Notes: generated by a model from the letters alone, not told the origin. Shown: positions 4,625-22,877, counted from the first letter of the stretch. The stretch: DNA of 64,000 nt from an uncultured Chloroflexia bacterium (GCA_963740825.1 CAVUFD010000002.1:1070990-1134989), one strand, 5' to 3'. Numbers and translations are program-made.

Positions 4625-4691
4625 CACCCCATGGTAGGCAGCGGGGCAAACGGACCGGTCGGCCAAGCGCATGGGACGGCCGACGGAATCG

Positions 4692-6805: not shown

Positions 6806-7291
6806 ATGCCCGAGCTGACGTACCGGGCGACGCTCGACCAGCCGCCGGGCGTCGTGTTCGACTACGTCGCGGACGCCGAGAACAACCCGACCTGGCACGA
6901 GCACGTCCGAGAGACGCGGTGGATCGACGATGGACCGACGCGCCTCGGGCGGCGCGGACGCCAGACGGGCCACCTGCTGTGGCGCGACTGGGAGTTCGTC
7001 GCGGAGGTCGCCGCGTGGGACCCGCCGCACCTGGTCGCGTTCCAGGTGGTCGAGGGCACCCGGATTCGGACGACGATCCGCGTCGAGCCGGCGGGCGACG
7101 GCACGTTGATGTCGCTCACCGTCCGGACCCCGCGGATCCTCGGCCGCCGCATCGACGGCCTGATCAGCCGCGTCATGCAGCGGACCACGGCCAAACGGGA
7201 GCGAGGGGACATCACGCGCCTCCGGGCCGCCCTGGCGGCGCGCGACGATGGGCCTAGCTCGACGCGCCCTCCGGCAGCGGGATCGGGCTGA
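6806..7291 (+). CDS. SRPBCC family protein
   Basis: VFDYVADAENNPTW START-fold signature. Confidence 0.85.
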   Translation: MPELTYRATLDQPPGVVFDYVADAENNPTWHEHVRETRWIDDGPTRLGRRGRQTGHLLWRDWEFVAEVAAWDPPHLVAFQVVEGTRIRTTIRVEPAGDGTLMSLTVRTPRILGRRIDGLISRVMQRTTAKRERGDITRLRAALAARDDGPSSTRPPAAGSG

Positions 7292-7631
7292 CCAGCTGGA
7301 AGTAGTTGCCGTCGGGATCGCTGAACGTCGCGATCCACGCATCGGGCGCCATCTCGAAGGTGTAGGGCTCGCGAACGACCGTCGCGCCGGCGGCCTTGAA
7401 CGTCGCGAAGTCGCCCTTCACGTCGGGGGTCTCGATGTTGATGATCAGCCGCCCGGGCTCGGGGTTGGTGCCGTGCACCTCGCTGTGCGGTCCGACGGTG
7501 AGCCCGCCCGAGCCGACGATCCAGCCCACGTACCCGCCGTCGTCCCAGCCGGGCTTCCCGAGCAGCTTCGTGTAGTAGTCCGCCACCCGCTGCGGGTTCT
7601 CGGAGCCGATGAGGATGCCGTTGAGATTCAC
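7254..7631 (-). CDS. VOC/glyoxalase family protein
   Basis: ATFSDPDGNYFQL motif; 125 aa. Confidence 0.9.
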   Translation of the reverse strand: MNLNGILIGSENPQRVADYYTKLLGKPGWDDGGYVGWIVGSGGLTVGPHSEVHGTNPEPGRLIINIETPDVKGDFATFKAAGATVVREPYTFEMAPDAWIATFSDPDGNYFQLVSPIPLPEGASS

Positions 7632-7757
7632 GATGCCTCCTTCGCCTGCCCGTCCACCCTACCCACGTGCGGTCACCGGCGCCAGCCGGGTCGGCGCCGC
7701 AGGCGCGAAGATGGCGCGACAGTCGGGAGCGGGGCTCGCGCGAACGGAGGTGGTGCG

Positions 7758-8783
7758 ATGGCCGAGAACGTGCTCGATCGGGTGGGCGAGGCGGCGCTCT
7801 ACCGGGCGCTGCGGCGCTTCTGGCACCCGGTCATGTGGGCCGACGACCTGGGGGACCGTCCGGCGGCGGCTACCCTGCTCGACGAGCCGCTTGCGATCGT
7901 GCGCCTCGACGGCGCGGTCCGAGCGTTCAAGGACCTGTGCGTCCACCGGGGCACGGCGCTGTCGCTGGGCTGGGTCGCCGACGGGCACCTGGTGTGCGCG
8001 TACCACGGCTGGACCTACGACCCTGAGGGGGTCTGCACCCGGATCCCCGCCAGCCATGGGACCAACATCCCGAGCAAGGCGCGGATCGTCCGCCACCGCG
8101 CCGCCGAGCACGCAGGCCTGATCTGGGTCTGCCTCGACGACGAGCCCGCGATGGGCCTGCCCGCCTTCCCCGAGTGGGCCGACGACGCGTACCGCAAGAT
8201 CAGGATCCCGCAGTACGACTGGCACTGCAGCGCCGCGCGGCGGGTCGAGAACTTCGTCGACTTCAGCCACTTCGCGTGGGTGCACGAGGGCATCCTGGGC
8301 GACCGTTCGAAGCCCGAGATCCCTGATCACGACGTCGTCCGGGGCGCGACCACGCTGTCGTTCGAGCTCGGGATCGAGGAGCCGGCGAACCCGGTCAAGG
8401 GCGATGCGGGCGACGCGGGGCGGATCCAGCGCACGCCGAGCCGGTACACGATCTCGATGCCGTTCTCGGTCCATCTCGACCAGCCGCTCGAGGACGGCAT
8501 CCACTTCGTGCTGTTCGTCGCCTCGTGCCCGCTGTCGGCCAAGGAGACGCGCAACTTCACCTGGAACGCGCGCAACTACGAGCTGGACCCGGCCGCCGAT
8601 CGGGGCTTCGTCGACTTCCAGCAGGTGATCCTGGACCAGGACCGCGTCGTCGTGGAGTCGCAGCGCCCCGAGGAGCTGCCGATCGACCTGTCCGAGGAGC
8701 TCCACATCAAGGGCGTCGACCGCGTGTCCATCGACTACCGCCGCTGGCTCGGCGAGATCGCGACCCTGGAGGCCCAGCGATGA
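7758..8783 (+). CDS. Rieske non-heme iron oxygenase alpha subunit (VanA/demethylase-like)
   Basis: Rieske motifs DLCVHRG and CAYHGW; mononuclear Fe motif ENFVDFSHFAWVH; GGAGG RBS. Confidence 0.92.
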   Translation: MAENVLDRVGEAALYRALRRFWHPVMWADDLGDRPAAATLLDEPLAIVRLDGAVRAFKDLCVHRGTALSLGWVADGHLVCAYHGWTYDPEGVCTRIPASHGTNIPSKARIVRHRAAEHAGLIWVCLDDEPAMGLPAFPEWADDAYRKIRIPQYDWHCSAARRVENFVDFSHFAWVHEGILGDRSKPEIPDHDVVRGATTLSFELGIEEPANPVKGDAGDAGRIQRTPSRYTISMPFSVHLDQPLEDGIHFVLFVASCPLSAKETRNFTWNARNYELDPAADRGFVDFQQVILDQDRVVVESQRPEELPIDLSEELHIKGVDRVSIDYRRWLGEIATLEAQR

Positions 8784-9526
8784 ACGCCCTGAGGTACCGG
8801 CTCCGCAACCCCCGTTTCCACCCGTCGGCGATCCTGCTCGCGACCCAGCTCGTCGGCGTCATCCTCTACGCCTTCGTCGACGCCGACCGCGGTCGGGCGC
8901 TGCTGTCCCTGTTCGGTCTGCTGGTGCTCGTCCTCGTGGCGCGCGCCGTGGAGCGGACGCCGGCGCTGACCTGGGTCTCGATCCTGATCGGCGTGCCGAT
9001 CGTCATCCTGATCGCGCTCGAGCTCGCGTTCCCGGACGACCTCACCATCCTGCTGGTGCTGTCGATCCTGCTGTCGGCCTACTACCTGTACGCGTCATAC
9101 GCGCTCGTCCGCTACATGTTCCACGACGGGATCGTGACCCCCGACGAGCTCTATGCGACGGGCGCCACGTTCACGGTGCTCGCGTGGGGGTTCGCGTACA
9201 TCTTCCTCGCCGTCCAGACGGCATGGCCCGGGTCGTTCACCGGACCCGGCGATCCGGGCGCGGCACAATCCTGGTTCGCGCTCCTGTTCCTGTCGTTCAC
9301 GACGCTCACGAGCGTCGGGCTGTCGGACATCCTTCCCGTGCTGTCCCAGGCGCGCTCCGCGGTCATGATCGAGCAGGTGGTCGGGCTGATGTACGTGGCG
9401 ATCGTCATCAGCCGGGTCGTCGCGCTGACGGTCGCGCGCCAGCGGTTCGAGGGCGTGCGGGCCGTGCGGAGCGCGCCGGCCTCACCGGTTGCCGCCGGCC
9501 AGCCAGATGTCGACGAGGTGGGCTGA
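8780..9526 (+). CDS. Potassium/ion channel family membrane protein (Ion_trans_2)
   Basis: FLSFTTLTSVGLSDILP pore motif; multiple TM helices; ATGA overlap with the upstream gene. Confidence 0.85.
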   Translation: MNALRYRLRNPRFHPSAILLATQLVGVILYAFVDADRGRALLSLFGLLVLVLVARAVERTPALTWVSILIGVPIVILIALELAFPDDLTILLVLSILLSAYYLYASYALVRYMFHDGIVTPDELYATGATFTVLAWGFAYIFLAVQTAWPGSFTGPGDPGAAQSWFALLFLSFTTLTSVGLSDILPVLSQARSAVMIEQVVGLMYVAIVISRVVALTVARQRFEGVRAVRSAPASPVAAGQPDVDEVG

Positions 9527-9570
9527 GTGCGCCGCCTGGTCGCTGCGCCGTCGCGGTTGCCTCCCCCCGC

Positions 9571-10620
9571 TCAGACGTCGAACAGCTCGGACCAGCTCGG
9601 CTCCCCGCCGGAGAGGGCCTGGTCCACCGACATCGCGAGCTTCATGCGCTTGCTGAGGTCGTAGTCCTCACCGATCAGGCCGGCGAACCCGAGGTCGTCC
9701 TTGAGCCCGGCGTAGTCGTTCTTGAGCTGCGTCTTGACACGGGTCCGATCGGCGGTCGTGAGCTCCGGCGCCTCGTGCGCGGCGATGATCGCGGCGCGGT
9801 AGAACCCGTCTGCCTTCTCGAGGTCCTGGTCGGCGAGCGCCTCACTGGCCGCCTTCACATGCGCCGCGATCGCGCTCAGGCTCCGATACTCCGGGCCTGC
9901 CTCGGTGACCTCGAGCCGGAACAGGAGGTGGTCGATCCCCTCGAGCGGTGAATTGTTGGCGCCGAAGCGGAGCTGGCCGTTGGCCACGCTCAGCTGGCTC
10001 GGATCGACCTCCTGCTCGGTCGCCCTGATGGCCGCCCAGTAGCCGCCCCGCTGACCGGCGGCGAAGGCATCGTGCAGCGCGAGGTGGATCCCCCCGTCGT
10101 TCAGCAGCGACTGCAGTCCGGTCGCCAGCGGCGACGCGATGTTCAGGGCGCTCGAGAACTGGGGAACCGCCAGGAGCGCCGAGAAGCTGCTCAGGGTGGT
10201 GATGAAGCTCTTGAGGTAGTTCTCCCCCTGGACGGCGATCAGCCCGGCGTCCAGGCTCACGACCCCACCGTTGAACGGGATGAGAGGCGTCAGGACGAAG
10301 TTCCTCGCGATCACGTCCCCGCTCGCCTCCTGGGTCAGGCCGGCCCGGCTGGCGTCGGCGATGGTCGGGAAGTCCACCGGCTGGCCCTGGAAGTCGAACC
10401 TCACGAGGGCATGGACCGCGGGATACCAGGTCTGGAGGTACTGCACCTGCTTGGCGAGGTAGACGTTCGCGATCCAGAGGCGGAGGTAGTGCCGCCCGTA
10501 TTCGAGCGGCACGTAGTCGGTCGTGACGTCGACCCGAGCCGCATCGATCGGGACGTACACCATCTGCTTGGTCGTCTTGTCCCAGAGGTCTGTGAGGCGC
10601 TGCCTCAGGTCATCGAGCAC
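9571..10620 (-). CDS. Hypothetical protein, last gene of the CHAT/STAND operon (putative effector or substrate)
   Basis: Well-formed ORF; GGAGG 7 nt before GTG 10620 (alternative start 10635); central amphipathic helical hairpin. Confidence 0.8.
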   Translation of the reverse strand: MLDDLRQRLTDLWDKTTKQMVYVPIDAARVDVTTDYVPLEYGRHYLRLWIANVYLAKQVQYLQTWYPAVHALVRFDFQGQPVDFPTIADASRAGLTQEASGDVIARNFVLTPLIPFNGGVVSLDAGLIAVQGENYLKSFITTLSSFSALLAVPQFSSALNIASPLATGLQSLLNDGGIHLALHDAFAAGQRGGYWAAIRATEQEVDPSQLSVANGQLRFGANNSPLEGIDHLLFRLEVTEAGPEYRSLSAIAAHVKAASEALADQDLEKADGFYRAAIIAAHEAPELTTADRTRVKTQLKNDYAGLKDDLGFAGLIGEDYDLSKRMKLAMSVDQALSGGEPSWSELFDV

Positions 10621-10642
10621 TCCCGGTCCTCCCACCGTATGG

Positions 10643-13600
10643 TCAGCCCTGCCGCCGCGTCGGCATGTCGAACACGCAGACGTCGAGGGCTCGCTCCCAG
10701 GCGTCGGGCCGTTGCCCGGACGTCAGGACCGCAGCCTGCACCTTCGTCACCGCTGACAGGATGCCCGCCGGTCCGCCAGTCGCGAACCCGGCCGCGGCGC
10801 GATTGACGGCGTCCCAGGCGGTGGTCGCCAGCGACGGCTCCAGGGGCGGGATCACGACGACCCGCGACCCGAGACGCGCCAGCTCCGTGGCGAACAGGCG
10901 GGTGAGGTTGGCCGCCTCGCGGTCGCTCCCCACGCGCCCCGTCGCCTCCTCGGGCGGGTATCCCTGGACGATGAACAGGCCGGCCTGCGGATAGGCGCGC
11001 CGCAGGTCCTCAGGTCGCAGGACCTGGTCCGACGCGGTGTCGGCGACGGCGCTCGAGGACGAGGGGGCGACCTGCGACCCGTATGCGCGGGCCGGCGCGA
11101 GCCGCAACGCGCGTCCGCCGTGGTCCTCGACGGTGATGCCAATGACGTGCACGACGTCGGAAGCTGCTGGCTCACCGGTGTCCGGCGATCGAGCAGCACG
11201 GACGAGTGACCACGCGATCTTGCCCCCCGTCCGCTTCTCGAGGGCCCGGCGCACGATGCCGGCCGCGACGTCATCACCCGCGATCGTTTCGCCGATGAGC
11301 CGGCCCGCGTGAGCCCGACGGACGTCGGGCCGGCTCGCGTCGGCAAGGCGCGTGACCCGAACGGGCAGGTCGGTCGGCGCCGCCTCGGGACCGGTCATCG
11401 CGAGCGCGAGCATCGCCTCCCAGTTGAATCGGTGGAGGTCGCCTCGCGGGGAGAGCCGGACCTGCCATGGCGGTCGCATCAGCGGCACCTGGGCCGCCAC
11501 CAGCCCCTTGAGGCCGTCGGGCACCGACCTCGCGAGCGCGACGTACGCATCGAGGTCGGACACGACGGCCACCTCCGACGGATGTGCGCGGTACGGGCGG
11601 AGCTGCAGTGGAGGGAGACCGCGCACCGGTCGCAGGATCCACATCGTGGGGGTCAGCTTGACCGCGACTCGTCCGCTCCCACTCGACGAGGCGTTCGTGA
11701 GGCTCGGGCTGTCGCCGGGCGAGGTACCACCCGGCGCGTCCGAGAGTTGGATGTCGACGTCCAATCGTGTCCACAGCAGCGTCAGGGTCTTCATCGAGTC
11801 GCCGAACCGCCGACCGATCCAGATGAGCAGGCCGAACGCGGCGAGCGTCAGGCCGTACAGCGCGAACTGCTGCCAGAACCCGAGGCTGTCGACGCCGGAC
11901 CAGAGCAGCGCGACGAGGTAGTGCCACCCGATGAACAGGCCGACGACCAGGCCGATCGCCGTGCCGACGAGCGTCGCGATGTCCCGCCCAGCCGACGGGG
12001 CCGCGGGCAGCTCGAGATCGACAGGCCCGGAACCCCGGCGGCTGCGGTACCGCGCCCACTCCGTCGGCAACGCGACCCCGGTGGCCGAGGACACGCCGTA
12101 GCGCTGCTCCAGCCACGTCGCGAACGCGTCGGCGGCTGCGACGCCTGACGGTCCGTTCGCCGTGCTGCGCACGGCCAGCGAGGCGATCAGCCGGGCGAAC
12201 CAGGGACGAAGCTCAGGTGGCTCGAGCTGGTCGAAGGCGGCGTCGGTCGGCGCGGCCGCGATCGCCTCCAGCTCCTCTGTCGTCGCGAGCGTGGACACGC
12301 CTCTTCGTCCGAGGTCGATCGCCATCGCCAGATACGCCGCGAGCGCCGCGGCGGCGAACGGCGCGGCATCGTCCGAGGTCCCTCCTGGCCCCTCCTCCGT
12401 TGCTTGCGGGTGCGTCCCGAGCAGGGCCGCGAGCGCCGCCGTCGAGAACGCCCCGAACGCGTCGCGGCAGGTGGCATACCGGGCGTTCGCCCACGCGAGG
12501 ATCGGCACTGCCGCCTCCGGCAGGCGCAGGGCGAGCAGCTCCGCCTCCTCGAAGGCGATCTCCGCGCAGCGTCGGGGACCGATGCGCTCGAGGAGGCTCG
12601 CCGGGACCATCGCCTCGATCGATGGCATGCCCTCGCCCAGCACGGCGTCCCGGAGGACGACCCGGAGTGTCCCCTCAGGCCGACCCGGGTAGCGGGCCGA
12701 CCAGGCCGGCCCGGACCGCTCGATGCTGACCGTGAAGCTGCGGCCCGGCAGGTGGACGCCGTACGCCGCCGCAACGAGCACGAGCTCACGGAGGTCGCGA
12801 AACAGCATGTCGCTGTCCGCGACGCCGACGCTGGGCACGGCCGTCGCCGCGGGCTCGACCGTCGCGAGGCCCCATGTCACGAGATCCCGGGCCGACCCAC
12901 GATCGATGGCGTAGCTCGCCTGCCACGTCAGGTGGATCTCCTCCGGTGGGACCTGTCCGCGGTCGAGGGGTTGCGCCGGCCCGGCGAGGCCTTGGAGCGA
13001 CCGGAACAGGGCCCTGTCCGCGAGGCGAGGCGACGACGCAAGGGAGCCTGCGACGGTCTCACCCTCGTCGGTCGAACGTAGTCGGCGACTCAGCCATGCC
13101 ATCGCACGGTCGGCGCTCCGCTGCAGCTCCATGTTCTGCGCCGCGCTCGCGGTCGCTGCCGCGGCCTGCAGGTGGCGCCGGGCCTGGGCGTAGAGGCCGA
13201 AGGCGCTCTGGAGCTCCGCGACGCGGACGAACAACGGCGGCACGAGCCGGTGTGCGTTGATCGGCTCAAGGCCCATCGTGACGACGTTGGGCACGAGGAG
13301 CCACTTGGCGACGTCCTTCCAGCCGGCCACCATGCCCTCGGGCGTCTCGGTAAGCCGTTCCGCGAGCCTCATCGCCAGGATCGTCGAGACGAGCCGGTCG
13401 CCATCGGCCGTCGAGACATCGGCATCGACGACCCCGAGCATCGCGATGGTCTCCGCGGGCGATCGGACGGCAGGGTAGGCCGTGCGCGCCACCTCGAGGC
13501 GGACGCGCGTGGCGACATCGGGCGGCGCCTGCCAGTCGACCCATGGCACTTCCGGTCGCTGAGCAGGCACAAGCTCGAGGGCCCGGGCGAGGAGGTGTCC

Positions 13601-16600
13601 GGCCCAATCCGGGTCGGGAGCGAGCACAGCGGCCCGGCCCGCCTGGAGATGCAGCATGGCCCGGAGGGCATCGATCGCCGCCGGCCCGCCTTCGGTATCC
13701 GCGAGCCACGACGAATGCGTGCGTTCCACTTCAGCCGCGACCCACTGCGGACCGGACGTCGTCAGCCCGATGCCCTCACGGGCCGACCGGGTGTTGTGCA
13801 GGTCGACCCACGGCGTTGGAACCTCGATCTCGTAGGCCACGCGATCAACCGATGTCAGCGGGCCAAAGTCCGGGTGGTCGATCGTCCATCCGCCGCCCGT
13901 CGCGAGCGTGGCGACGATGGCCAGCGAGTCGTCGCCCGGATGGTTCGGGTCGTAGATCCGGATCTCGATGTGGTCGGCGGCCTCTGCCGCCGCAAACCCC
14001 ACCACGTGGTGGCGGCCATCCCTCGCCGCGTCGCCTTGCCGGGCGGGTGTCCTGAACGAGAGCCTGAGCGGGACGGGCCGACCTGCGGCAATGTCTGCCC
14101 GGATTGAAGGCCACGTCTCGGCGAACGAGTGCGTCGAACCGCGACGAACCAGCAGGGTCTGCCGCCTCGCGAGGTAGGCGAACTCCGGGCTGCCATTCGG
14201 CGGCGGCGAGGTGTCGTCCGGCGGAGCGATGCCGCGCATCCACAGGTCGACGGCGGCGACCGCCATGCCGCCGTCGAGCCCATCAGCCGCGTCCCCGATG
14301 GACAGCCCGCTGACCTTCGCGATCGGGCCGGGCGGAAAGCTGTTGACGAATCGCCAGGCGTTCCGCGACGGCCGGAAGCCGGTGTCCAGCTCGTCCGCGG
14401 CCCGCGACGCCGTCGGTGCGAATCCGGGGCCGGGCCGGGGCAGCTCCAGGAGCTTCCGGTTGGCCGCCGGGTCAAGCTCGACGAAATCGACCAGCGTCTC
14501 GATCGCGGCCAGCGCCGATGCCGCCTCCTGGGCGTTCGCGAACGGCAGATCCGCCGCCTGCCAGGCGACCCACAGCTCATGGACGAGGTCGGCTGACGGC
14601 GGGGCGCCGGCGTGCCTCGCCGCGGCGACCTGCCCCGCCAGCGCACGCCGATAGAGGCGTTCGAGCAGCGGCGTCTTCGCGTGGGCCCGCGCCGCCTCGG
14701 CCACCTCGAGCCAGGCCGACCCGAGGGCGACGGCGTCGCCCGCCTGCTGGAGCAGGCGGACCCGAGTGGCCAGGACGAACGGGCGTAGCGGGTTCTCGCT
14801 GACGCCGATCGGGTCGTCGGGCTCGACGGGCCGGGCCGCCCCGTCGCTGGACAGGACGCGGTCGAGCACCTCCCGCATCCAGGCCGGCCGTTCCGCGAAC
14901 AGGCGGTGCTGGACCATGGTCCACCACGTCGCGCCTCGGGCGGGGTCGTGGGCGAGGACGCGCAGGCCGCTGTCGAAGTCGGCCCAATCGAGCGCGCCGA
15001 GGTCACCCTCGATCGTCAGCTGCTCGATGGCGCGCGCGCTCGGCTCGAGCTCCGACGCCTGCGGTCGGCCATGCCCGGCGAAGTAGCGCACCAGCATGTC
15101 GCGGACGTCCGGGGCCAGGTCCAGGATCTCGCGCTCCGGCTCGCCGCCCGAACGGTGCATGCCGACCCACTCCTGGTCGGCCAACGCCCTGAACTGGCGC
15201 TCGCCCTCTTCCTCGCCCAGGTTCGCGGCGGCGCGGAAGGTGGTCAGGTCGAAGTGGCCCAGCGTCGCCACGCGTGGCAGGACCTCCTCGAGCCCCGCGT
15301 CGCGCAGGCGCTGGATGAGCCGGAGCTCGACGTACCGCCCCGAGCCCGCGGTCTCCACCATCTCGGGCGTGGGCGGGGGCGTCGATCGCGCCCAGTCGAG
15401 GTACATCCGCACCAGGTAGGGGTTGCAACGAGGGACGTCGCGCGGGCCGTCGTCGGGATCGTCGTAGTCGACCTCGATGCTGGTCCTCAGGTCGGGCGAG
15501 CTGGCCCGGATGACCGGCTCGACCAGCAATTCGGGCACCTTCTCGTGCTTCAGGTACAGCCGTGTCTCGTCGTGGGAGAAGCCGCGGATCTCGTGGATCC
15601 GCAGGTACGGCCGATCGGGCAGCGTGGAGCTGGGAACGTTCCAGCCGGCCCCGCCTGCGGCGAGCGCGCGCCTGCCGGAGAAGATCACGCGGAGGCCCGG
15701 GACGCCGCCGTTCGGCGGCGCCTGGTCGTCCACGAGCGCATCGGGGCCGTCGTGCAGGGCGCGGAGGATGCGGAACGTCTCCTCGAGGGTCGAGTCCGTG
15801 CCGGCCTCCGGCTCGACCTTGGCGAGCTCCTCGCAGGTGTCGAGCACGATCACCACGCGCTTCCCGATCGATTGGATGGCCTCGATGTAGGCGCGAATCC
15901 CCGCGGCCATGCGCGGGTCGAGGGTCGCGCGTTCGCGCCTGAGGCCGTCAGCCTTCTGGGTCTCGTGCAGGAGCGTGAACTGCTCCTCGGCCCGGTCGAA
16001 CAGGTTGTTCGTGGTCACGTTGCCGGCCGGACGCAGCTCGGCCGCCAGATCGACCAGGAGCAGCCCGGGATTGAGCCTCGGGTAGTCGAGGTTCAGATAG
16101 TCGAAGTCCACTCGCGCGACCGCCGCCTCGCGGTCGAACGGGCGGGGATCGCCGGAGCATGGCGACCCGGGCGCCTGGGTCATCAGGCAGGTCGCGTAGC
16201 GAACGACCATCGTCTTGCCCACGCCACCCGGCCCGATGAGGTGCAGCGCCCACCGGTCGTCCGGACCGTCGACGAGGGTCCGGATCGCCTCGATCTGCTC
16301 CTCGCGCCGGTGGAAGGCCATGAGGTGGCGGAAGTCGAGCTCTCGCCGCTTCGAGAGTTCGATCGTGCGGCCGGCGCCGGCGATCGCGAGGCTGAGATCC
16401 CTCGCGGCCGCGTATTCGAACAGGACGGCCAGCGGCCGGGCGACGTCGATCCAGTCGCGGATCGTCGCGACGTCCAGAACCTCGAAGGCGATCGCCAGCT
16501 TCTGCTCGAACGCCTTGGCGGCGGCCTTGGCATCCTCCGCATGGATCGCCAGCTCACTCCAGTCGAGCATCGGTTCGGGGACGGCGGCCACTGGGCGGAC

Positions 16601-17128
16601 GGCGTGGACCTGCGCACCGATCTGCGCCGTCGTCGCGAGCAGGCTCCCCGCGCCACGGATGACTTCCGGACGTCCCCGTGCCGTCGCCGTCTGGCGTGCG
16701 CGGAGGAGCGGCGACTCGGCTGCCCGACGCTGGCCGCCGGCCGGTGGATCGCCGGCGCCGTCGTTGCGTTCGACGGCGAGGTACGCCCGCATCGTCTCGG
16801 CTCGGGCGACCGCGGTCATCACGTAGTAGTCCGCGTCCGGTCCCGCGTCAGGTCCTGCGTCGACCGGATAGACGTCGACGACACCCGCGGCGCGCAGCCG
16901 CGCGAGGGCGTCTGCGACGCTCTCGTCGGGGGCCGTCGGGAACCCGCATGCCTCCGCGAGGCGGATCGTCCAGCCCGGTGCAAGGGCGGCCCAGACGCGT
17001 GCCGGTTCCTGTGCGGCCGACGTTCGAGACCGCTCCGCCTCCTCCAGGACGGTGGCCATGGACTCGTCGAGTCGGCGACTCAGCTCGACGAGGTCGGGAT
17101 CGCTCGGCCCAGGCGGGGCGGCGGTCAC
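10643..17128 (-). CDS. Giant STAND-type ATP-binding protein with inserted papain-like pseudo-protease, 2 TM helices and a degenerate C-terminal CHAT-like domain
   Basis: 2161 aa. Walker A GPGGVGKT (~16211-16234), Walker B VIVLDTCEE, sensor VIFSGRR, IRGFS..E and CNP motifs; GLDGGM/HHVV/IYDPN insert; TM ~11815-11980. Confidence 0.82.
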   Translation of the reverse strand: MTAAPPGPSDPDLVELSRRLDESMATVLEEAERSRTSAAQEPARVWAALAPGWTIRLAEACGFPTAPDESVADALARLRAAGVVDVYPVDAGPDAGPDADYYVMTAVARAETMRAYLAVERNDGAGDPPAGGQRRAAESPLLRARQTATARGRPEVIRGAGSLLATTAQIGAQVHAVRPVAAVPEPMLDWSELAIHAEDAKAAAKAFEQKLAIAFEVLDVATIRDWIDVARPLAVLFEYAAARDLSLAIAGAGRTIELSKRRELDFRHLMAFHRREEQIEAIRTLVDGPDDRWALHLIGPGGVGKTMVVRYATCLMTQAPGSPCSGDPRPFDREAAVARVDFDYLNLDYPRLNPGLLLVDLAAELRPAGNVTTNNLFDRAEEQFTLLHETQKADGLRRERATLDPRMAAGIRAYIEAIQSIGKRVVIVLDTCEELAKVEPEAGTDSTLEETFRILRALHDGPDALVDDQAPPNGGVPGLRVIFSGRRALAAGGAGWNVPSSTLPDRPYLRIHEIRGFSHDETRLYLKHEKVPELLVEPVIRASSPDLRTSIEVDYDDPDDGPRDVPRCNPYLVRMYLDWARSTPPPTPEMVETAGSGRYVELRLIQRLRDAGLEEVLPRVATLGHFDLTTFRAAANLGEEEGERQFRALADQEWVGMHRSGGEPEREILDLAPDVRDMLVRYFAGHGRPQASELEPSARAIEQLTIEGDLGALDWADFDSGLRVLAHDPARGATWWTMVQHRLFAERPAWMREVLDRVLSSDGAARPVEPDDPIGVSENPLRPFVLATRVRLLQQAGDAVALGSAWLEVAEAARAHAKTPLLERLYRRALAGQVAAARHAGAPPSADLVHELWVAWQAADLPFANAQEAASALAAIETLVDFVELDPAANRKLLELPRPGPGFAPTASRAADELDTGFRPSRNAWRFVNSFPPGPIAKVSGLSIGDAADGLDGGMAVAAVDLWMRGIAPPDDTSPPPNGSPEFAYLARRQTLLVRRGSTHSFAETWPSIRADIAAGRPVPLRLSFRTPARQGDAARDGRHHVVGFAAAEAADHIEIRIYDPNHPGDDSLAIVATLATGGGWTIDHPDFGPLTSVDRVAYEIEVPTPWVDLHNTRSAREGIGLTTSGPQWVAAEVERTHSSWLADTEGGPAAIDALRAMLHLQAGRAAVLAPDPDWAGHLLARALELVPAQRPEVPWVDWQAPPDVATRVRLEVARTAYPAVRSPAETIAMLGVVDADVSTADGDRLVSTILAMRLAERLTETPEGMVAGWKDVAKWLLVPNVVTMGLEPINAHRLVPPLFVRVAELQSAFGLYAQARRHLQAAAATASAAQNMELQRSADRAMAWLSRRLRSTDEGETVAGSLASSPRLADRALFRSLQGLAGPAQPLDRGQVPPEEIHLTWQASYAIDRGSARDLVTWGLATVEPAATAVPSVGVADSDMLFRDLRELVLVAAAYGVHLPGRSFTVSIERSGPAWSARYPGRPEGTLRVVLRDAVLGEGMPSIEAMVPASLLERIGPRRCAEIAFEEAELLALRLPEAAVPILAWANARYATCRDAFGAFSTAALAALLGTHPQATEEGPGGTSDDAAPFAAAALAAYLAMAIDLGRRGVSTLATTEELEAIAAAPTDAAFDQLEPPELRPWFARLIASLAVRSTANGPSGVAAADAFATWLEQRYGVSSATGVALPTEWARYRSRRGSGPVDLELPAAPSAGRDIATLVGTAIGLVVGLFIGWHYLVALLWSGVDSLGFWQQFALYGLTLAAFGLLIWIGRRFGDSMKTLTLLWTRLDVDIQLSDAPGGTSPGDSPSLTNASSSGSGRVAVKLTPTMWILRPVRGLPPLQLRPYRAHPSEVAVVSDLDAYVALARSVPDGLKGLVAAQVPLMRPPWQVRLSPRGDLHRFNWEAMLALAMTGPEAAPTDLPVRVTRLADASRPDVRRAHAGRLIGETIAGDDVAAGIVRRALEKRTGGKIAWSLVRAARSPDTGEPAASDVVHVIGITVEDHGGRALRLAPARAYGSQVAPSSSSAVADTASDQVLRPEDLRRAYPQAGLFIVQGYPPEEATGRVGSDREAANLTRLFATELARLGSRVVVIPPLEPSLATTAWDAVNRAAAGFATGGPAGILSAVTKVQAAVLTSGQRPDAWERALDVCVFDMPTRRQG

Positions 17129-19446
17129 GGCTCGCCTCCCGTCCGTCCGGCCGCGCGCTTGGCTTCCGCGTCGAGCGCGTCGTCGTCGTTTGCCGTCCGC
17201 ATCTGCGGCGTGAGGTCCCGCAGCATGTTGATCGCATTCGTCACGACCTCTTGGTCGAGCTTGGCCGGGACGCCCCAGCCGGTCGACTGCGCCAGGTTGA
17301 AGACGATGAGCCGGTCCAGCGAGTCACGGGCCGCGATGCTCAGTGGGGTCGGCACGTGCTCGGGCCGCCACCCGAGCAGGAACTGGCGGTACACCAGCGA
17401 CGCCTCCTGATAGACGGGTGCGTCGTCCGTCGAGTCCTGCTTGAGGAATCTCCCGTGCAGCGGGCCGAGGGGCAGGCGATCGACGTCGCTCGACTGCAGG
17501 AAGTCGTTGATCGCGTTGATCGTGGTCGCCTGGGGCTCGACCGGGATCGTGTGATAGGTCAGCACGGCGCGTGTCGACGTTCGTGCGCGCTCGTCGACGA
17601 GCCCCTGACTGCCAAACAGTTCGACGAACGTGTCCCAGAACAGGAGATCGTGTGCGTCCTCCAGGAACAGGACGACCTTCACGTCCGCCTCCGCGCTCAC
17701 AAGGCCGCGCTGCTCGCAGACGACGCGTCGGATCTCGAGCAGATCGAGCATCAGCGCCTTCGCGAGCTTCTGATCGTCGCTGAGTCCGAATGCGGCGAAT
17801 TCGCCCGGCAGGCCACTCACGGGCGGATCGGCGAGCAGCTGGCGCGTCAATGCCCAGAACTCGGGCAGGCGTCCCTGAAGGGCTGCGTGCTCGGGCATGT
17901 GGCCGAGGAATGTCACGGTGTTGGCGAAGGCCTTGGCGATCAGCTCGACAAAGACCCCCGGGCGGCTCGGCCACTTGTGATTTGAGATTCCGAGCTGGAC
18001 CTTGCTGACGAGGATCGGGATGTGCCCATCGCGCAGCGCCTCGCCCGCCAGCTCCTGCAGGAGTCGCTCGCTGCCGTATTGGGGCTGAGACTGCTGGTCG
18101 CTGTCGGTCGCGTCGCGCCGGTCGACCGGGATCACGAGGAATTGCTTGCCGCCGTTCGAGACCAGGTTTCGATAGGCGGCGAAGAAGGACCATCGGCCGC
18201 AGAACACCGGGTAGTCCGGTTTCCGCGTGAACATCTGGGCGGCCTCGAGGCGCGCCTGATCAGGGTCGGTGACCGTGAGGTCGATGCTCACCGGCCCGAT
18301 GGCTTCGGCCATGTACAGCGTCGGGAGGGCCCAGTCGATCTGCGATCGAGCGTCGTAGTTACCGAACAGGATTCCGGCACGCCGGCCCTTGGCCGCCGCC
18401 TGCGCGATCTCATCGCCGCTCAACAGCGACGTGTAGAAGCCGCGCGTGAACAGGCGGCAGGCCTGGTCCGCGACGTTGCCGGACATGCCGACCACCACCG
18501 GGATGCCGCGCGCCACGAGCTCCGCGGCCATCGGTCGCCCGATCGACACCTCTTCGGCGGACGTCGGGGCGCAAGCGTTCAGCACGACCAGGCCGGGCAG
18601 CGTCAGGTTCGCCTCGGTCGCGAGGAGGCCGAGGAGCCGCTCCGCGTCGACCGGGTCATCCATCGTCTTGTCCGGCTCGCCGCGGAAGGCGATGACCGGC
18701 CGGTCATCGGACATCTTGCCGTGCCCGATGACGTGGACGACGTTCGGCTTGAACGACTGGATGGCCCGTGAGACGTCCGACGCTGTCGCCCCGATCAGCA
18801 GTCGGGTGTTGAGCACCTTGTTCACGTGCTTCAGCGCGCGAAGCAGCCCGAGGTACTCGGCACCGGCACGGATGTTCGGGTCGCCGAGCTCGGACGCAAC
18901 GACGACGAGCACCTTGGGCGGCGACGGGAGGTGCGTGATGCGCCGGGCGTCGTCGCCCGTGCCGGCGACCCGCCGTGTCATCTGCACGCCAGAGGCGGCG
19001 AGAAAGGCCGCATCGGGTCCCGTGGTGTGCATCACATCCCAGGGCAGGACGTTCATCTTCGAGTCCGCCGGCCAGGTGAGCGCGAGCTCGATCTCGTCGC
19101 GCCGCGTCGCAGCCGCGACGATCTTCGTCCACAGCTCACTGCCGAGCAGCGTGTTGAACAGGTAGACGCCGAACCGCTGGACACCGTCCTGCGCGGCGGC
19201 CTGGTTCATCACGTTCCGGAACTCCATGTCCAGCCCATCCGCGGTGATCCCGTCAGGGAGCGCATCGGGGCTCCCGATCGGAGGGAGCGGGTAGGCCGAC
19301 GTGTCGGTCGCCACCTCTACGAGCACTCGCGGCTCGGGAAGGATCAGGTCCTGTGAGCCCGGCACGCGCATCGGCTGGCCATCCAGGTCGAGCACGCGCA
19401 CGCTCCAGCCGTGCGGCAGCGTCTCGACGTCGATGGTGAACCGCAT
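17125..19446 (-). CDS. CHAT domain protease fused to a degenerate (inactive) STAND NTPase
   Basis: LPWDVM, VHVIGHG (His), LVVLNACA (Cys), GIPVVVGM and DWALPTLY; C-terminal FCGR...YGSERLL...VVLFLEDAH. Its stop overlaps the next start (GTGA). Confidence 0.85.
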   Translation of the reverse strand: MRFTIDVETLPHGWSVRVLDLDGQPMRVPGSQDLILPEPRVLVEVATDTSAYPLPPIGSPDALPDGITADGLDMEFRNVMNQAAAQDGVQRFGVYLFNTLLGSELWTKIVAAATRRDEIELALTWPADSKMNVLPWDVMHTTGPDAAFLAASGVQMTRRVAGTGDDARRITHLPSPPKVLVVVASELGDPNIRAGAEYLGLLRALKHVNKVLNTRLLIGATASDVSRAIQSFKPNVVHVIGHGKMSDDRPVIAFRGEPDKTMDDPVDAERLLGLLATEANLTLPGLVVLNACAPTSAEEVSIGRPMAAELVARGIPVVVGMSGNVADQACRLFTRGFYTSLLSGDEIAQAAAKGRRAGILFGNYDARSQIDWALPTLYMAEAIGPVSIDLTVTDPDQARLEAAQMFTRKPDYPVFCGRWSFFAAYRNLVSNGGKQFLVIPVDRRDATDSDQQSQPQYGSERLLQELAGEALRDGHIPILVSKVQLGISNHKWPSRPGVFVELIAKAFANTVTFLGHMPEHAALQGRLPEFWALTRQLLADPPVSGLPGEFAAFGLSDDQKLAKALMLDLLEIRRVVCEQRGLVSAEADVKVVLFLEDAHDLLFWDTFVELFGSQGLVDERARTSTRAVLTYHTIPVEPQATTINAINDFLQSSDVDRLPLGPLHGRFLKQDSTDDAPVYQEASLVYRQFLLGWRPEHVPTPLSIAARDSLDRLIVFNLAQSTGWGVPAKLDQEVVTNAINMLRDLTPQMRTANDDDALDAEAKRAAGRTGGEP

Positions 19447-19457
19447 GGTGGGCCGCC

Positions 19458-20921
19458 CTACTCTGGCTGCGTGGCGGCGCGGAGCTCGTGGCTCCGACCG
19501 AGCAGCCACTCGCCGAGCGCCGTGCCCTGCGCGGCGAGCTCGGGTCGCTCCGTCCCTGCCCGTGTGCCCTCAGGGCCGCTGGTCGCGAGTGCCACATTCG
19601 CGTTCGCGGCCAGCTGGTCGATGGCCTTGCGCCGCTCGTCAGTCGACGGCAGGCCCGCGGTGCGCTGCCAGGCGAGGAACGACGCACAGACGAGGTAGCG
19701 AGGGCTGAGCAGGCTGCGGACCGGCGCGCCGGCGCCGAGCGCGAGCTCGCCGGCCCATGAGCGCGCCTTGGTCGTCAGCCCGTCGCGGACCGCCGTGAGG
19801 CCGCACAGCTCCGCGATGGTCTTCCCGCCCTCGGTGAGCGGACCGAGCGCTCGATCCAGGACTCGATCCACGTCGCCCATGTCGGCGACGACCTGGGCCG
19901 TGGCCGATGAGGCGGCCGGATCGATCCCTTCGATGGCCTCGGTGCCGCTCATCCCGAGGCGATCGGCCGCACGGGCCATCAGCACGAGGCGGACGATCGG
20001 CGCCGGATAGGCGCCCGACGGACGCGCCATCTCCTCGGGGGGACCGAGCACGAGCTCCCGCAGCGCCTTGATGGCCCAGGGCCCGATCATCGCTACGGAG
20101 ACCAGGTCCGCGAACAGCTCGGCGCTCCACCTGCCCCAGCGCTCCGCTCGGGCGGTGGCTTCGGGTTCGGCGGGCTGCCAGGCCGCGGCCACGACCGCCC
20201 GGAACGGTTGGACGAGGCCGAGCTCCTGCTGGATGTTGTGGCCGACTTCGTGGGCGATGAAGACCAGCCACCAAGGCGAGTCGATGCACCACGTCGGCAG
20301 CCGCAGGGTCGGAACGGGGAGGTTCGCCAGGAAGGACTCGAGGCCGCCGATGTCCGTGGCCTCGCGGAGGGCTGATGGCGCCTGCTTCGCCGCCTCCCAG
20401 GTCGCCGGCGAGTACTCGGCCTCCACGTAGGCAAGGGGCGCCGGGCCGATCCGGACGCCTGGCGGCAGCCCGGTCGAGACGAAGACGTGCCGGTAGCAGC
20501 TCCAGACGACCTCATCCGCCGCCTTGAGCGTAGGCGCGAGGACAGGATCGTCGCGCTGGTCGAACTTCTCCCGGTAATAGGTCCAGACCCGGTGCATCCA
20601 GACGACCGCCTCGTCGATCTCGCGGCAGTCCACGTTGACGTCGGCTGCGCTGCGGCCGAGGGTGACATCGACGGACTCGAGGGCCGACGACAGCGCCGCG
20701 AGCCCGCCCTTCAGGACCTGTTCGAGGGCGTCGAGGCGCGTCCGGTGGAGCTGGGCGAACGGGGTGTCGCCGGTCGAATCGGCCCTTCGCCGTACGAACC
20801 AAGCATTGATCGCCGTTCCGAGCCGAGCCAGCTCGCGCTCGGACTGCTCGCGACGCACGATCGCCGGCATCGCACTCCCCGGCGCAGCCGATTGGCCGCC
20901 AGCGACCGGGCCTGTGACCAT
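19458..20921 (-). CDS. HEXXH zinc metallopeptidase-like protein
   Basis: FIAHEVGHN with downstream ELFADL third-ligand motif and YPAPIVR. Confidence 0.75.
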   Translation of the reverse strand: MVTGPVAGGQSAAPGSAMPAIVRREQSERELARLGTAINAWFVRRRADSTGDTPFAQLHRTRLDALEQVLKGGLAALSSALESVDVTLGRSAADVNVDCREIDEAVVWMHRVWTYYREKFDQRDDPVLAPTLKAADEVVWSCYRHVFVSTGLPPGVRIGPAPLAYVEAEYSPATWEAAKQAPSALREATDIGGLESFLANLPVPTLRLPTWCIDSPWWLVFIAHEVGHNIQQELGLVQPFRAVVAAAWQPAEPEATARAERWGRWSAELFADLVSVAMIGPWAIKALRELVLGPPEEMARPSGAYPAPIVRLVLMARAADRLGMSGTEAIEGIDPAASSATAQVVADMGDVDRVLDRALGPLTEGGKTIAELCGLTAVRDGLTTKARSWAGELALGAGAPVRSLLSPRYLVCASFLAWQRTAGLPSTDERRKAIDQLAANANVALATSGPEGTRAGTERPELAAQGTALGEWLLGRSHELRAATQPE

Positions 20922-21197
20922 CGGCGACCCCCATCTGCCCGGACACGGTCCGCCGCCTCCGGGATTGGCGCGGCCGGCCCCCTGTGGTCCCTGGATCAGG
21001 CTGCTCGAGCGTCGCCTCGACCAGCAAGGCGACGGCGGTCAAATGGGATGTGATCCCACGGCATTATCCGGGCGGTGTCCATCCCCCGTCGAGCACGCGG
21101 GTGGTGCACGGCGCACCCGGGCACCAGACCATCGCCGCCCGACAGGTGACGTCCTCGCCCCTCGACCGGCGCGAGCTCGCGCGAGATGCTGGACGAC

Positions 21198-22877
21198 ATG
21201 CGATCTCAATTCGTCGCGTGGTTCGGCCTGCTCGCGATCGTGGCGGGCCTCGGCGTCCCGGCCGCGCATCCGGCGGGACGTCGTGGCGGCCGCACCTCCA
21301 CCGCCGCCATCCCCGCCGCGTGGCCCTTCGACCGGCTCGAGATCGGATTCGCCAATTCACCGGGCGGCGCCGCGGACCTCCGGGCCGATGCCCCGTTCGG
21401 CCTCCGCTACCAGTACCTCGCGGGTGGCGTGAACACCGGCAACGGCTGGGCGACCTGGAACACCAACGGCGACTTCGTGAACTGGTACGTCCAGGACTCG
21501 GTCGCCAACGGGATGGTCGCCGTGTTCCCGTACTACCAGCTCCTCCAGAGCTCGCCTGCGAGCGGCAGCGGCGAGTCCGGGAAGGACCTCAACAACCTCA
21601 AGAACGCCTCGACGATGGGCGCCTACTGGGCCGACGTCCGCCTGTTCATGCAGAAGGCCGCCGCCGGCGCGTCCGGGCATCCCGTGGTGCTGCACGTCGA
21701 GCCGGACCTGTGGGGCTACATCGAGCAGGCGGCGACCGACAACGATGCGAAGAACGTGCCGGCGTCCGTGGCCTCGAGCGGTGACGATGACCTCGTCGGC
21801 CTGCCCAACACCGCCGTCGGCTTCGCAGCTGCGTTCGTCAGGCTGCGCGACCTGTACGCGCCCAACGTGCTGCTCGCCTACCACGCGTCCGTGTGGGGGA
21901 CGATGTTCGACCTCCACGTCAGCCAGACGAGCGACGCGCAGACGGACCAGCTCGCGGCCAAGGCGGCGGCCTTCTACGGCTCGCTGAACGCGGACTTCGA
22001 CCTCGTCTTCACCGACCTCGCCGACCGCGACTCCGGCTTCTACCAGCACCAGTACGGCGATGGCGGGGCGGCGTGGTGGAACGCCTCCGACTTCCCGCGC
22101 TACGGGCGGTTCATCGGCGGGCTGTCGGCTGGGACCGGCAAGCGCGTCGTCGTGTGGCAGATCCCGATGGGCAACACGCTGATGCGCGCGACCAACGACA
22201 CGTGGGGCCATTACGCGGACAACCGGCCCGAGTGGTTCCTCGACGACGTGAGCGACGGGCACCTCGCCTCGTGGCGCGACTGGGGCGTCGTGGCGCTGCT
22301 GTTCGGTGGCGGTGCCGACGGGACGACGTGCGCCTGCGACGGGGTAGGCGATGGCGTGACCAACCCCGCGGCATCCGGGACGCACACTCGCGCCTCGCTC
22401 TCGGCCGACGATGACGGCGGCTACCTCCGCGATCGGGTCGGCGCCTACTACGACGCCGGCGGGCTCTCGCTCGTCGCCGGCGACGACACCCCGCCTCCGC
22501 CGCCTCCGCCGCCCGACGACCCGCCCGGCGGCGATCCGACGCCGCCGCCGGCCGTGACCTACGCGACCGGTGCGACCGCGAAGCCCGACGTCGTCCATCG
22601 CCGCCACGACACGACGATCAAGTCCCACGTCCGCGCGTCGGGAGCGACGCACGTCCTGCTCGACGTCGAGGTCGACGGCCCGCGCGGACACCGGGTGAAG
22701 CAGCGGACGTGGACCCTGAGCCTGGCGGCCGGCCAGACCCTGGCGCGCTCGTTCGACTGGCACGTGAAGCGCAGCCGCGCGAAGGGCACCTACACGGTCA
22801 AGGTCGGGGTCTTCCTCCCCGGCTGGGCCGGCCTCCTCGACTGGAACAACCGCGCTACGACGTTCAAGGTCCGCTGA
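21198..22877 (+). CDS. Secreted putative glycoside hydrolase-like protein with Pro-rich linker and C-terminal Ig-like domain
   Basis: Signal peptide; Trp/Tyr/Asp-rich barrel with RYQYLAGG, VLHVEPDLWGY and VWQIPMGN; poly-Pro linker; GTYTVKVGVF. Confidence 0.7.
   Translation: MRSQFVAWFGLLAIVAGLGVPAAHPAGRRGGRTSTAAIPAAWPFDRLEIGFANSPGGAADLRADAPFGLRYQYLAGGVNTGNGWATWNTNGDFVNWYVQDSVANGMVAVFPYYQLLQSSPASGSGESGKDLNNLKNASTMGAYWADVRLFMQKAAAGASGHPVVLHVEPDLWGYIEQAATDNDAKNVPASVASSGDDDLVGLPNTAVGFAAAFVRLRDLYAPNVLLAYHASVWGTMFDLHVSQTSDAQTDQLAAKAAAFYGSLNADFDLVFTDLADRDSGFYQHQYGDGGAAWWNASDFPRYGRFIGGLSAGTGKRVVVWQIPMGNTLMRATNDTWGHYADNRPEWFLDDVSDGHLASWRDWGVVALLFGGGADGTTCACDGVGDGVTNPAASGTHTRASLSADDDGGYLRDRVGAYYDAGGLSLVAGDDTPPPPPPPPDDPPGGDPTPPPAVTYATGATAKPDVVHRRHDTTIKSHVRASGATHVLLDVEVDGPRGHRVKQRTWTLSLAAGQTLARSFDWHVKRSRAKGTYTVKVGVFLPGWAGLLDWNNRATTFKVR

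Follow-up and report, generated by a model that had tools for sequence, protein, structure and literature searches.

A candidate four-gene protease/STAND conflict cassette with reciprocal live and degenerate domains in an uncultured Chloroflexia bacterium

The functionally closest described analogue of the genes considered here would be a four-gene operon of Lysobacter enzymogenes. As set out in the available part of its report, a STAND ATPase is encoded there together with two trypsin-like proteases and a cleavable gasdermin that kills the cell; in related operons the gasdermin is swapped for other effectors, and one of the two proteases is dispensable (PMC10312443). A cassette of comparable make-up lies at positions 9571-20921 of a 64,000-nucleotide (nt) stretch of DNA from an uncultured Chloroflexia bacterium (GCA_963740825.1 CAVUFD010000002.1:1070990-1134989; hereafter the window): four co-oriented minus-strand genes, g1 to g4, arranged head to tail. 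Within the limits of that source, the resemblance to Lysobacter is that four genes supply a STAND/NLR-like ATPase, two proteases and a fourth protein that is not a protease. The distinctive property is a reciprocal one: judged by motif, the protein with the live CHAT protease domain carries a mostly degenerate nucleoside triphosphatase (NTPase) domain, and the protein with the intact NTPase carries a dead CHAT-like domain. The four open reading frames (ORFs; lengths in amino acids, aa) are these.

19458-20921, minus strand: g1, 487 aa, zincin-like metallopeptidase of an uncharacterised family
17125-19446, minus strand: g2, 773 aa, predicted active CHAT protease with a degenerate STAND-like P-loop domain
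10643-17128, minus strand: g3, 2161 aa, STAND-like NTPase with a predicted membrane anchor and a pseudo-CHAT tail
9571-10620, minus strand: g4, 349 aa, no catalytic signature; modelled as a C2-like beta-sandwich with an amphipathic insert and a helical tail

The reading favoured here takes the cassette for an NLR-like, protease-coupled conflict system of the programmed cell death or anti-phage type; on the sequence evidence this is about an even call. The kind of system is familiar, as a STAND NTPase with a protease and an effector. It is not wholly new, because the Lysobacter operon already joins a STAND ATPase to two proteases and a swappable fourth gene. What would be novel is that pseudo-domains are split reciprocally, that the NTPase is membrane-anchored, and that a zincin and a C2-like fourth protein take part. 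The cassette proteases are a zincin and a CHAT enzyme, whereas those of Lysobacter, in the text available, are two trypsin-like enzymes; the ATPase is about 2000 aa long and predicted to be membrane-anchored, unlike that of Lysobacter; and in place of a gasdermin, for which Pfam and PADLOC gave no match in the cassette, stands a protein whose model is C2-like. Unlike the Lysobacter operon and its CARD relatives, the cassette has no detectable shared adaptor of the CARD kind, only the CHAT/pseudo-CHAT and NTPase/pseudo-NTPase pairs.

A second group of comparable systems comprises the NTP-dependent conflict systems of Kaur, Burroughs, Iyer and Aravind, among them System 4 (EACC1-caspase) and iSTAND (PMC7159879). 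As far as the accessible text of that paper goes, the likeness is broad: caspase-superfamily peptidases fused to STAND NTPases, STAND or peptidase domains that are inactive, inactive acquired modules for which a decoy role is proposed, an association with membranes, and over-representation among actinobacteria and social bacteria. Judged by architecture, System 4 differs in its 5' gene, which is a single-transmembrane EACC1 protein and not, as here, a 487-aa zincin without a hydrophobic segment. The vWA-MoxR ternary systems differ as well, since a scan of the four proteins and of 20 flanking ORFs gave neither MoxR nor vWA. The cassette further departs from the systems of that paper, in its accessible part, by splitting live and dead domains reciprocally over two proteins, with a zincin and a C2-like protein as partners; the paper's source tables may nonetheless list this architecture. 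A literature search found no description of it, and the supplementary tables of PMC7159879 and PMC8195603 may cover it.

A third comparison is with SAVED-CHAT/type III CRISPR, where, according to the part of the preprint consulted, a CHAT protease starts a proteolytic cascade in bacterial immunity (bioRxiv 10.1101/2023.06.23.546230). The solved CHAT closest to g2 by sequence is 8tl0_A ('CHAT domain-containing protein'; expectation value, E, 5e-10). Unlike SAVED-CHAT, the cassette has no SAVED, Cas or cyclic-oligonucleotide genes beside it. PADLOC-DB v2.0.0 (2023; Avs included) matched none of its system models, and gave only short generic matches, for the orthologues alike: ZorA for g1 (E 5e-4), SAVED_CHAT for g2 over a short CHAT stretch (E 8.5e-6), and nothing for g3. 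An initial reading made from the sequence alone (the sequence-only reading) had claimed that the locus fits no named system it recognised. This stands in so far as no PADLOC v2 model fits; it falls short in that the overall logic has a described functional analogue, the Lysobacter gasdermin operon.

The case for the reciprocal split begins with g2.

18319-19143, minus strand: g2 CHAT domain (Pfam CHAT PF12770, E 2e-21, 77 bits against a cut-off of 24)
18721-18723, minus strand: g2 His242, catalytic His
18571-18573, minus strand: g2 Cys292, catalytic Cys
17128-18219, minus strand: g2 C-terminal P-loop-like domain, by profile similarity to the g3 NTPase
18064-18081, minus strand: g2 Walker-A-like QYGSER, with Lys replaced by Ser
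17647-17676, minus strand: g2 Walker-B-like VVLFLEDAHD, conserved as hhhhDD in relatives

Two g2 orthologues score 86 and 59 bits against Pfam CHAT. Among the best 120 of at least 143 relatives, on which all residue counts for g2 rest, 119 retain the catalytic His and 119 the catalytic Cys; by motif, then, g2 is a live CHAT protease. In the C-terminal half, a preamble of the form 'F.gR...L' is followed by G[KRLS][TS] at the place of Walker A, where the window reads YGSE. The column of the Walker A lysine holds K in 31 relatives, R in 57, L in 10, S in 8, G in 6 and other residues in 8. Profile comparison by hhalign relates this domain to the g3 NTPase at 71% probability over 54 columns; under a looser setting the match extends over 289 columns at 66%, Walker A, Walker B and the strand after them aligning in order, and a precomputed AAA_16 match is present for 7 of the 120 listed relatives. 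That the C-terminus is a mostly degenerate STAND-like P-loop domain is thus moderately supported by sequence comparison. The sequence-only reading had proposed a CHAT protease with intact His and Cys fused to an NTPase lacking the Walker A Lys: the protease half is upheld, and the lysine is indeed missing from the window's protein (Ser); as a property of the family the loss does not hold, with K in 31 of 120 and R in 57.

The mirror image of this arrangement is found in g3, whose relatives number at least 177 (1257-2567 aa, mostly 1600-2500 aa).

15449-16366, minus strand: g3 NTPase core (Pfam AAA_16, E 6e-6, 27.2 bits against a cut-off of 32.6)
16211-16234, minus strand: g3 Walker A GPGGVGKT; G299, G301, G302, G304 and K305 invariant in 39 relatives
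15827-15856, minus strand: g3 Walker B VVIVLDTCEE; D430-E434 invariant in 39 relatives, with a conserved FSGRR strand after it
11813-11983, minus strand: g3 two hydrophobic segments, residues ~1716-1742 and ~1752-1772 (Kyte-Doolittle), predicted transmembrane
10646-11461, minus strand: g3 pseudo-CHAT domain, by hhalign to the g2 CHAT profile
11132-11149, minus strand: g3 motif holding the His-column residue, Ile1998, by alignment to g2 CHAT
10958-10966, minus strand: g3 Cys-column residue, Tyr2057, by alignment to g2 CHAT

The NTPase core is the best conserved region of the protein: GxxxxGK[ST] is present in 109 of 120 relatives, and some of the relatives listed carry a precomputed NACHT or AAA_16 match. 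Beyond the core lie conserved regions of unrecognised fold; profile search found no solved relative, and Pfam, at E<=10, found nothing in the insert discussed below, the middle region or the pseudo-CHAT domain. The kinship of the tail with CHAT domains comes from the g2 profile, to which the C-terminal ~320 aa of g3 align by hhalign with 93.6% probability (E 2e-7, 217 columns), against 0.3% and 0.8% for control pairs; the Pfam CHAT model itself does not match this domain. None of the 120 relatives has His and Cys at the catalytic columns, and the domain conserves residues of its own (W1903 in 111 of 120, E1904 in 109, H1994 in 105, Q2055 in 105). At least one hydrophobic segment, and usually two, ~400-450 aa from the C-terminus, is present in 105 of the 120; the number of segments in g3 being even, both arms of the protein would lie on the same side of the membrane. 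Two members of the family carry further modules: a 1745-aa relative (P0280) has a precomputed TIR match (PF13676) and another (P0220) has TPR repeats, which suggests that some g3-family proteins fuse known effector or sensor modules.

Set against each other, the two families divide cleanly by motif: 119 of 120 g2 proteins keep the dyad and 0 of 120 g3 proteins have it, so that the reciprocal live/dead split is a conserved property of both families and not a quirk of one genome. The order of domains differs, CHAT being N-terminal in g2 and C-terminal in g3. A search for further domains shared among parts of the four proteins found none (all hhalign probabilities <28%), and the CHAT/pseudo-CHAT and NTPase/pseudo-NTPase pairs would therefore be the only candidates for homotypic contact. 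On these points the sequence-only reading, which had described g3 as a 2161-aa protein with intact Walker A and B and a CHAT-like tail lacking the dyad, and had called the system membrane-anchored with reciprocal active and dead domains, agrees with what is seen across the families.

Pairings of this sort are known in eukaryotes, in caspase-8 with the pseudo-caspase cFLIP and in sensor/helper NLR pairs. By analogy only, the dead protease could pair with the live one, and the degenerate P-loop with the competent one. (cFLIP is mentioned in the available text of PMC8195603.) Were this correct, the cassette would be a prokaryotic counterpart of caspase-8/cFLIP and sensor/helper NLR logic, and bacterial NLR-like systems would recruit their protease by matched pseudo-enzyme domains, not only by Death-fold adaptors. 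It would also give a function to three families absent from Pfam: the g1 zincin (1150 representative clusters), the g3 NTPase (at least 177 relatives) and the g4 C2-like protein.

Whether the four genes belong together was approached through g4, the rarest part, which was used as bait: it has 36 relatives at E<=1e-3 in a search of 5.8 billion clusters, and scans with g4 patterns gave 2 loci in genome contigs and 4 in metagenome contigs. The order g1-g4 is the same in three complete loci, that of the window and two others. L009, a metagenome contig of 50% G+C (GC), has ORFs of 489, 780, 1971 and 356 aa, with identities to window g1/g2/g3/g4 of 46/45/44/58%; L005, in a Ktedonobacteraceae metagenome-assembled genome of 57% GC, has ORFs of 486, 797, 1823 and 358 aa, with identities of 34/28/31/34%. 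On two short contigs (L007, L010) the C-terminus of g3 lies directly upstream of g4. Three other g4-family genes add nothing to this: no match was found in the 286 nt available upstream in L008, no g3-like sequence in the 774 nt upstream in L006, and L012 runs into a contig edge, with the cassette not seen. Three complete loci from very different hosts, with the g3 tail and g4 adjoining on two short contigs, indicate on sequence grounds that the four genes form a conserved unit, inherited together.

A wider count can be had from a proxy for co-location, equal size of the longest contig among the matches listed, which yields lower bounds. By this proxy at least 7 of 10 g4 matches on contigs >=9 kilobases (kb) co-locate with a listed g3 match, at least 19 of 58 g2 matches on contigs >=10 kb co-locate with a g3 match, and at least 4 of 10 g1 relatives looked up co-locate with a listed g2 or g3 match. 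The four-gene order expected by the sequence-only reading is thus complete in L009 and L005, and g4 is present, by the proxy, in only a subset of g2-g3 loci. The two large proteins co-diverge: over 20 pairs their pairwise identities correlate with a Pearson r of 0.90, a value that 0 of 2000 label permutations reach.

These data also bear on the simplest alternative, namely that the four ORFs are neighbours by chance, or artefacts of high-GC DNA, and do not work together. The window DNA is 71% GC, and at such composition long spurious ORFs are many. Against this, GC at third codon positions (GC3) is 0.88-0.92 in all four ORFs, as fits real genes in 71% GC DNA; all four have homologues, standing in the same order in DNA of 50% and 57% GC; g2 and g3 co-diverge; and the junctions are tight or overlapping. 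That is, the TAG stop of g1 is followed after 11 nt by the ATG of g2; g2 and g3 share a 4-nt GTGA overlap (g2 end 17125, g3 start 17128); and 22 nt separate the g3 stop from the g4 start, so that the four co-oriented genes and their spacing are just as first described. Chance or artefact is accordingly so improbable as to be negligible. The starts adopted are not always those of the longest frame: the g2 frame spans 17125-19509, with the true ATG placed at 19446; the g4 frame spans 9571-10635, and since the database gene call is of 349 aa and begins MLDDL, the start is at 10620. The Met at residue 18 may be the true start of g1.

Conserved as a unit, the cassette is scarce in any one lineage. 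Of 401 genomes sampled from the window's phylum, the g4 hidden Markov model (HMM) matches 3, two of them distant relatives; it matches none of 3 congeners and none of 23 genomes of the family. The N-terminal 900 aa of g3 match 1 of the 401, the window's own genome only. The g1 profile finds in that phylum the window's own genome and three weak partial matches (G009, G090, G182), which were rejected as the same system, being without g2 or g3 nearby; for L005, it matches 1 of 301 genomes at the level of the phylum and 3 of 169 at that of the class, these three being L005's own genome and two with distant zincins that belong to other operons. When a 20-kb DNA query was compared with three congeners, pieces of the flanks matched and nothing from 9571-20921. 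The pattern points to a cassette that is rare, patchy and horizontally spread.

Another perspective supposes that the cassette is not immune in function at all, but a membrane-linked module of regulated proteolysis or signalling, serving development or stress in filamentous or social bacteria in the manner of HetF-type CHAT proteins. The named hosts among the relatives (Ktedonobacteraceae, Sorangium, Polyangiaceae, Actinoplanes, Kribbella) would suit it, as would a weak match of g2 to NCBIfam HetF (E 9e-8, far below the model's cut-off) and flanks that are metabolic or regulatory and not defensive. Opposed to it are the absence of the cassette from the 3 congeners and the 23 genomes of the family, its recurrence across distant hosts (GC 50-71%, several bacterial lineages), and the pseudo-enzyme and decoy-like domains, which the accessible text of PMC7159879 treats as a hallmark of conflict systems. 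Patchiness together with recurrence in distant hosts argues for an accessory, horizontally moving conflict module rather than a core developmental pathway, and the developmental explanation is held to be improbable.

The 5' gene, g1, supplies what appears to be a second intact protease.

20238-20252, minus strand: g1 HEVGH motif, residues 224-228 (H224, E225, H228), invariant in 44 aligned relatives
20106-20120, minus strand: g1 ELFAD motif, residues 268-272; E268, F270 and D272 invariant in 44 aligned relatives

E268 is likely the third zinc ligand, which would make g1 a zincin of the gluzincin type, and the HEXXH metallopeptidase of the sequence-only reading is well founded in the invariance of HEVGH and E268. 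Relatives are numerous and, with few exceptions, 450-500 aa long (HMMER/phmmer, 1.84 billion representatives: 1150 at E<=1e-3, of which 325 reach E<=1e-30). No Pfam family exceeds its threshold with g1, Zn_peptidase coming closest with 15.8 bits (cut-off 23.2), with sub-threshold Zn_peptidase matches in 11 of 44 family members; solved structures (PDB) were not matched by sequence or by profile, and a Kyte-Doolittle scan found no hydrophobic segment. With motifs invariant and neither Pfam nor structure matched, g1 is by sequence an intact zincin of an undescribed family. Two distant g1-like zincins belong to another conserved operon: L026:16729-18270 (minus strand, 513 aa) and L027:4178-5512 (minus strand, 444 aa), with g1 HMM E of 2.3e-22 and 1.9e-24; ORFs of ~265, 465 and 400 aa then follow in both. 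They are not counted with the present system, there being no g2, g3, CHAT or STAND gene nearby.

One region of g3 went unremarked in the sequence-only reading.

13769-14446, minus strand: g3 lineage-specific insert, residues ~895-1120, a Cys-to-Asp copy of a stand-alone 240-aa protein

The insert is present in the window's g3 and in its 77%-identical relative; at the same site 36 of 37 other aligned relatives have 23-88 residues, and one has an unrelated 453-aa insert. At another place in the genome, a stand-alone ORF of 240 aa (L020:1492-2214, plus strand; G000:C1) shares 36% identity with it (E 3e-30). The GLCGGM of the stand-alone copy is GLDGGM in the insert and GLDAGM in the close relative; all three retain a His motif further downstream, and YDPNHP. 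Neither copy has a Pfam family; the Cys...His...Asp/Asn order of the stand-alone copy presumably recalls papain-like peptidases. Plant NLRs carry integrated decoys, and the insert, by its sequence, looks like one of these. It fits the theme, found in the accessible text on NTP-dependent conflict systems, of inactive acquired modules proposed as decoys (PMC7159879). If rightly understood, it would show in a concrete case that a bacterial sensor can hold an integrated decoy-like domain whose live paralogue is encoded in that genome too.

The fourth protein is the least readily placed. As the sequence-only reading had it, the protein (349 aa) has no known family: no Pfam, NCBIfam or PADLOC match appears at E<=0.1. 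Its invariant residues (e.g. Y45, P67, P115, G168, G193) are structural and not catalytic. An AlphaFold model built with 22 sequences (mean predicted local distance difference test, pLDDT, 73.3; predicted template modelling score, pTM, 0.69) shows a predicted beta-sandwich at ~40-240, a helical insert at 134-173, and a three-helix bundle followed by a flexible tail; the insert is amphipathic and highly conserved, and is modelled with low confidence. Most of the structural matches listed over residues 40-243 are to C2 domains, perforin's included, many at Z 6-7.7, and the model would make g4 a non-enzymatic protein with a C2-like fold. A search of the ESM Atlas by way of the 58%-identical homologue P0015 found unannotated look-alike clusters of 671, 155, 101 and 68 members (template modelling, TM, score 0.62-0.77). 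A gasdermin-like g4 is unsupported, though conceivable: Pfam and PADLOC gave no match, Foldseek none, and no gasdermin was among the 50 structural matches listed.

A distant relative of g4 occurs in other company. In L011, a 370-aa protein of the same overall layout (L011:463-1575, minus strand; HMM E 1e-11) overlaps the end of a gene for a 1023-aa nSTAND1 NTPase (L011:1556-4627, minus strand; Pfam E 2e-31), and g1, g2 and g3 were not found nearby. From its sequence this seems to be another STAND system that employs a fourth protein of the g4 kind; g4-type proteins would then have STAND NTPase partners of at least two kinds, and in this resemble a portable effector. On that strand of L011, three ORFs without an assigned family (376, 382 and 218 aa) precede these genes.

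From these parts a course of events can be proposed. The g3 protein would be anchored in the membrane, its two large arms reaching into the cytoplasm; a long helical arm, which here holds the inactivated copy of a host Cys/His protein, would sense the trigger; NTP-dependent oligomerisation of g3 would recruit g2 through the pseudo-CHAT/CHAT and NTPase/pseudo-NTPase pairs; and the CHAT protease would be switched on by induced proximity or heterodimerisation, in the style of cFLIP and caspase-8. That protease, either by itself or together with the g1 zincin in a cascade, would remove the C-terminal helical part of g4, and the freed C2-like body with its amphipathic insert would attack the membrane, so that the cell is killed or arrested. 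The boldest form of this proposal makes g3 a bacterial NLR that unites two devices so far familiar from eukaryotic immunity, an integrated decoy baiting a phage factor aimed at the live paralogue and a cFLIP-like pseudo-caspase platform at the membrane, and makes g4 the type of a new class of C2-like membrane-attacking executioners, shared with other STAND NTPases and comprising roughly a thousand unannotated bacterial proteins; in that full form it is speculative and rather unlikely.

A different division of labour is conceivable, in which the proteases are themselves the output, degrading host or phage proteins, and g4, neither substrate nor executioner, is an adaptor, co-sensor or inhibitor that tethers the complex to the membrane by its C2-like domain. 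C2 domains are typically targeting modules and the g4 model is C2-like; g4 lacks catalytic residues; the cassette keeps two intact proteases; and, by the proxy, g4 is in only a subset of g2-g3 loci among the matches listed. The pairing of a g4 relative with another STAND NTPase, no CHAT or zincin being near (L011), fits a portable effector better, and a conserved amphipathic insert at 134-173 would be unusual in a plain targeting domain. We regard this division of labour as possible but doubtful.

Several observations weigh against the favoured reading of a protease-coupled conflict system with g4 as its executioner. By the proxy, g4 is detected in 3 of 20 g2-g3 co-locations among the matches listed; it may be accessory, or no effector at all. 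Foldseek with the g4 model gave 0 matches at E<=1e-3. The best result of an exhaustive structural aligner, the C2 domain of cPLA2 (1bci_A, Z 8.3, root-mean-square deviation 3.3, 116 residues aligned), is borderline, Z values of 7-8 being common with this aligner where there is no true kinship. The link between the g2 C-terminus and the g3 NTPase is a moderate one, at 66-71% probability. Distant g1-like zincins occur in unrelated operons, and the role assigned to g1 in the system is a guess. Finally, the 20 flanking ORFs scanned yielded no known gene of defence or of mobile elements, so the location lends no defence-island support.

Those 20 ORFs are regulatory or metabolic, for example AraC, SRPBCC, Rieske oxygenase, MBL, an M48-like protein, LysE and DUF4331. 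Families of the MoxR, vWA, gasdermin and Cas kinds were not found among them or in the four proteins, in keeping with what had been noted at the outset. A promoter scan of 8700-21300 gave 1 sigma-70-like site, against 0.4 expected from shuffles, and none within the gene block.

21063-21092, minus strand: sigma-70-like promoter match upstream of g1, a consensus match only

Two neighbours were considered as a fifth member and rejected, having no counterpart in L009, L005, L011, L012 or L006: an 85-aa ORF downstream of g4 (9151-9408), and a divergent gene of 563 aa beside g1 (21186-22877, plus strand). The latter has no Pfam family, and its DNA is 78% identical in congener G079, for which reason it is taken as a resident gene outside the cassette. 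Located 4 kb further along, a protein of 758 aa (25068-27344, minus strand) gives a weak match to M48 peptidases. On the other side, matches to window 4004-4625 and 7282-7633 adjoin each other in congener G349 (C1:2092946-2093955); the AraC/SRPBCC block that separates them in the window is therefore variable as well, and the whole neighbourhood a region of gene flux.

No RNA dataset matching the locus was found, and two soil-metagenome DNA runs share a small fraction (0.14) of its words. The window holds a second, unrelated CHAT protein of 1065 aa (55757-58954, plus strand), with a C-terminal CHAT domain (Pfam, 119.9 bits) in which the Cys motif is present; it lies ~35 kb from the cassette, in a part of the window with lower GC (0.67-0.69).

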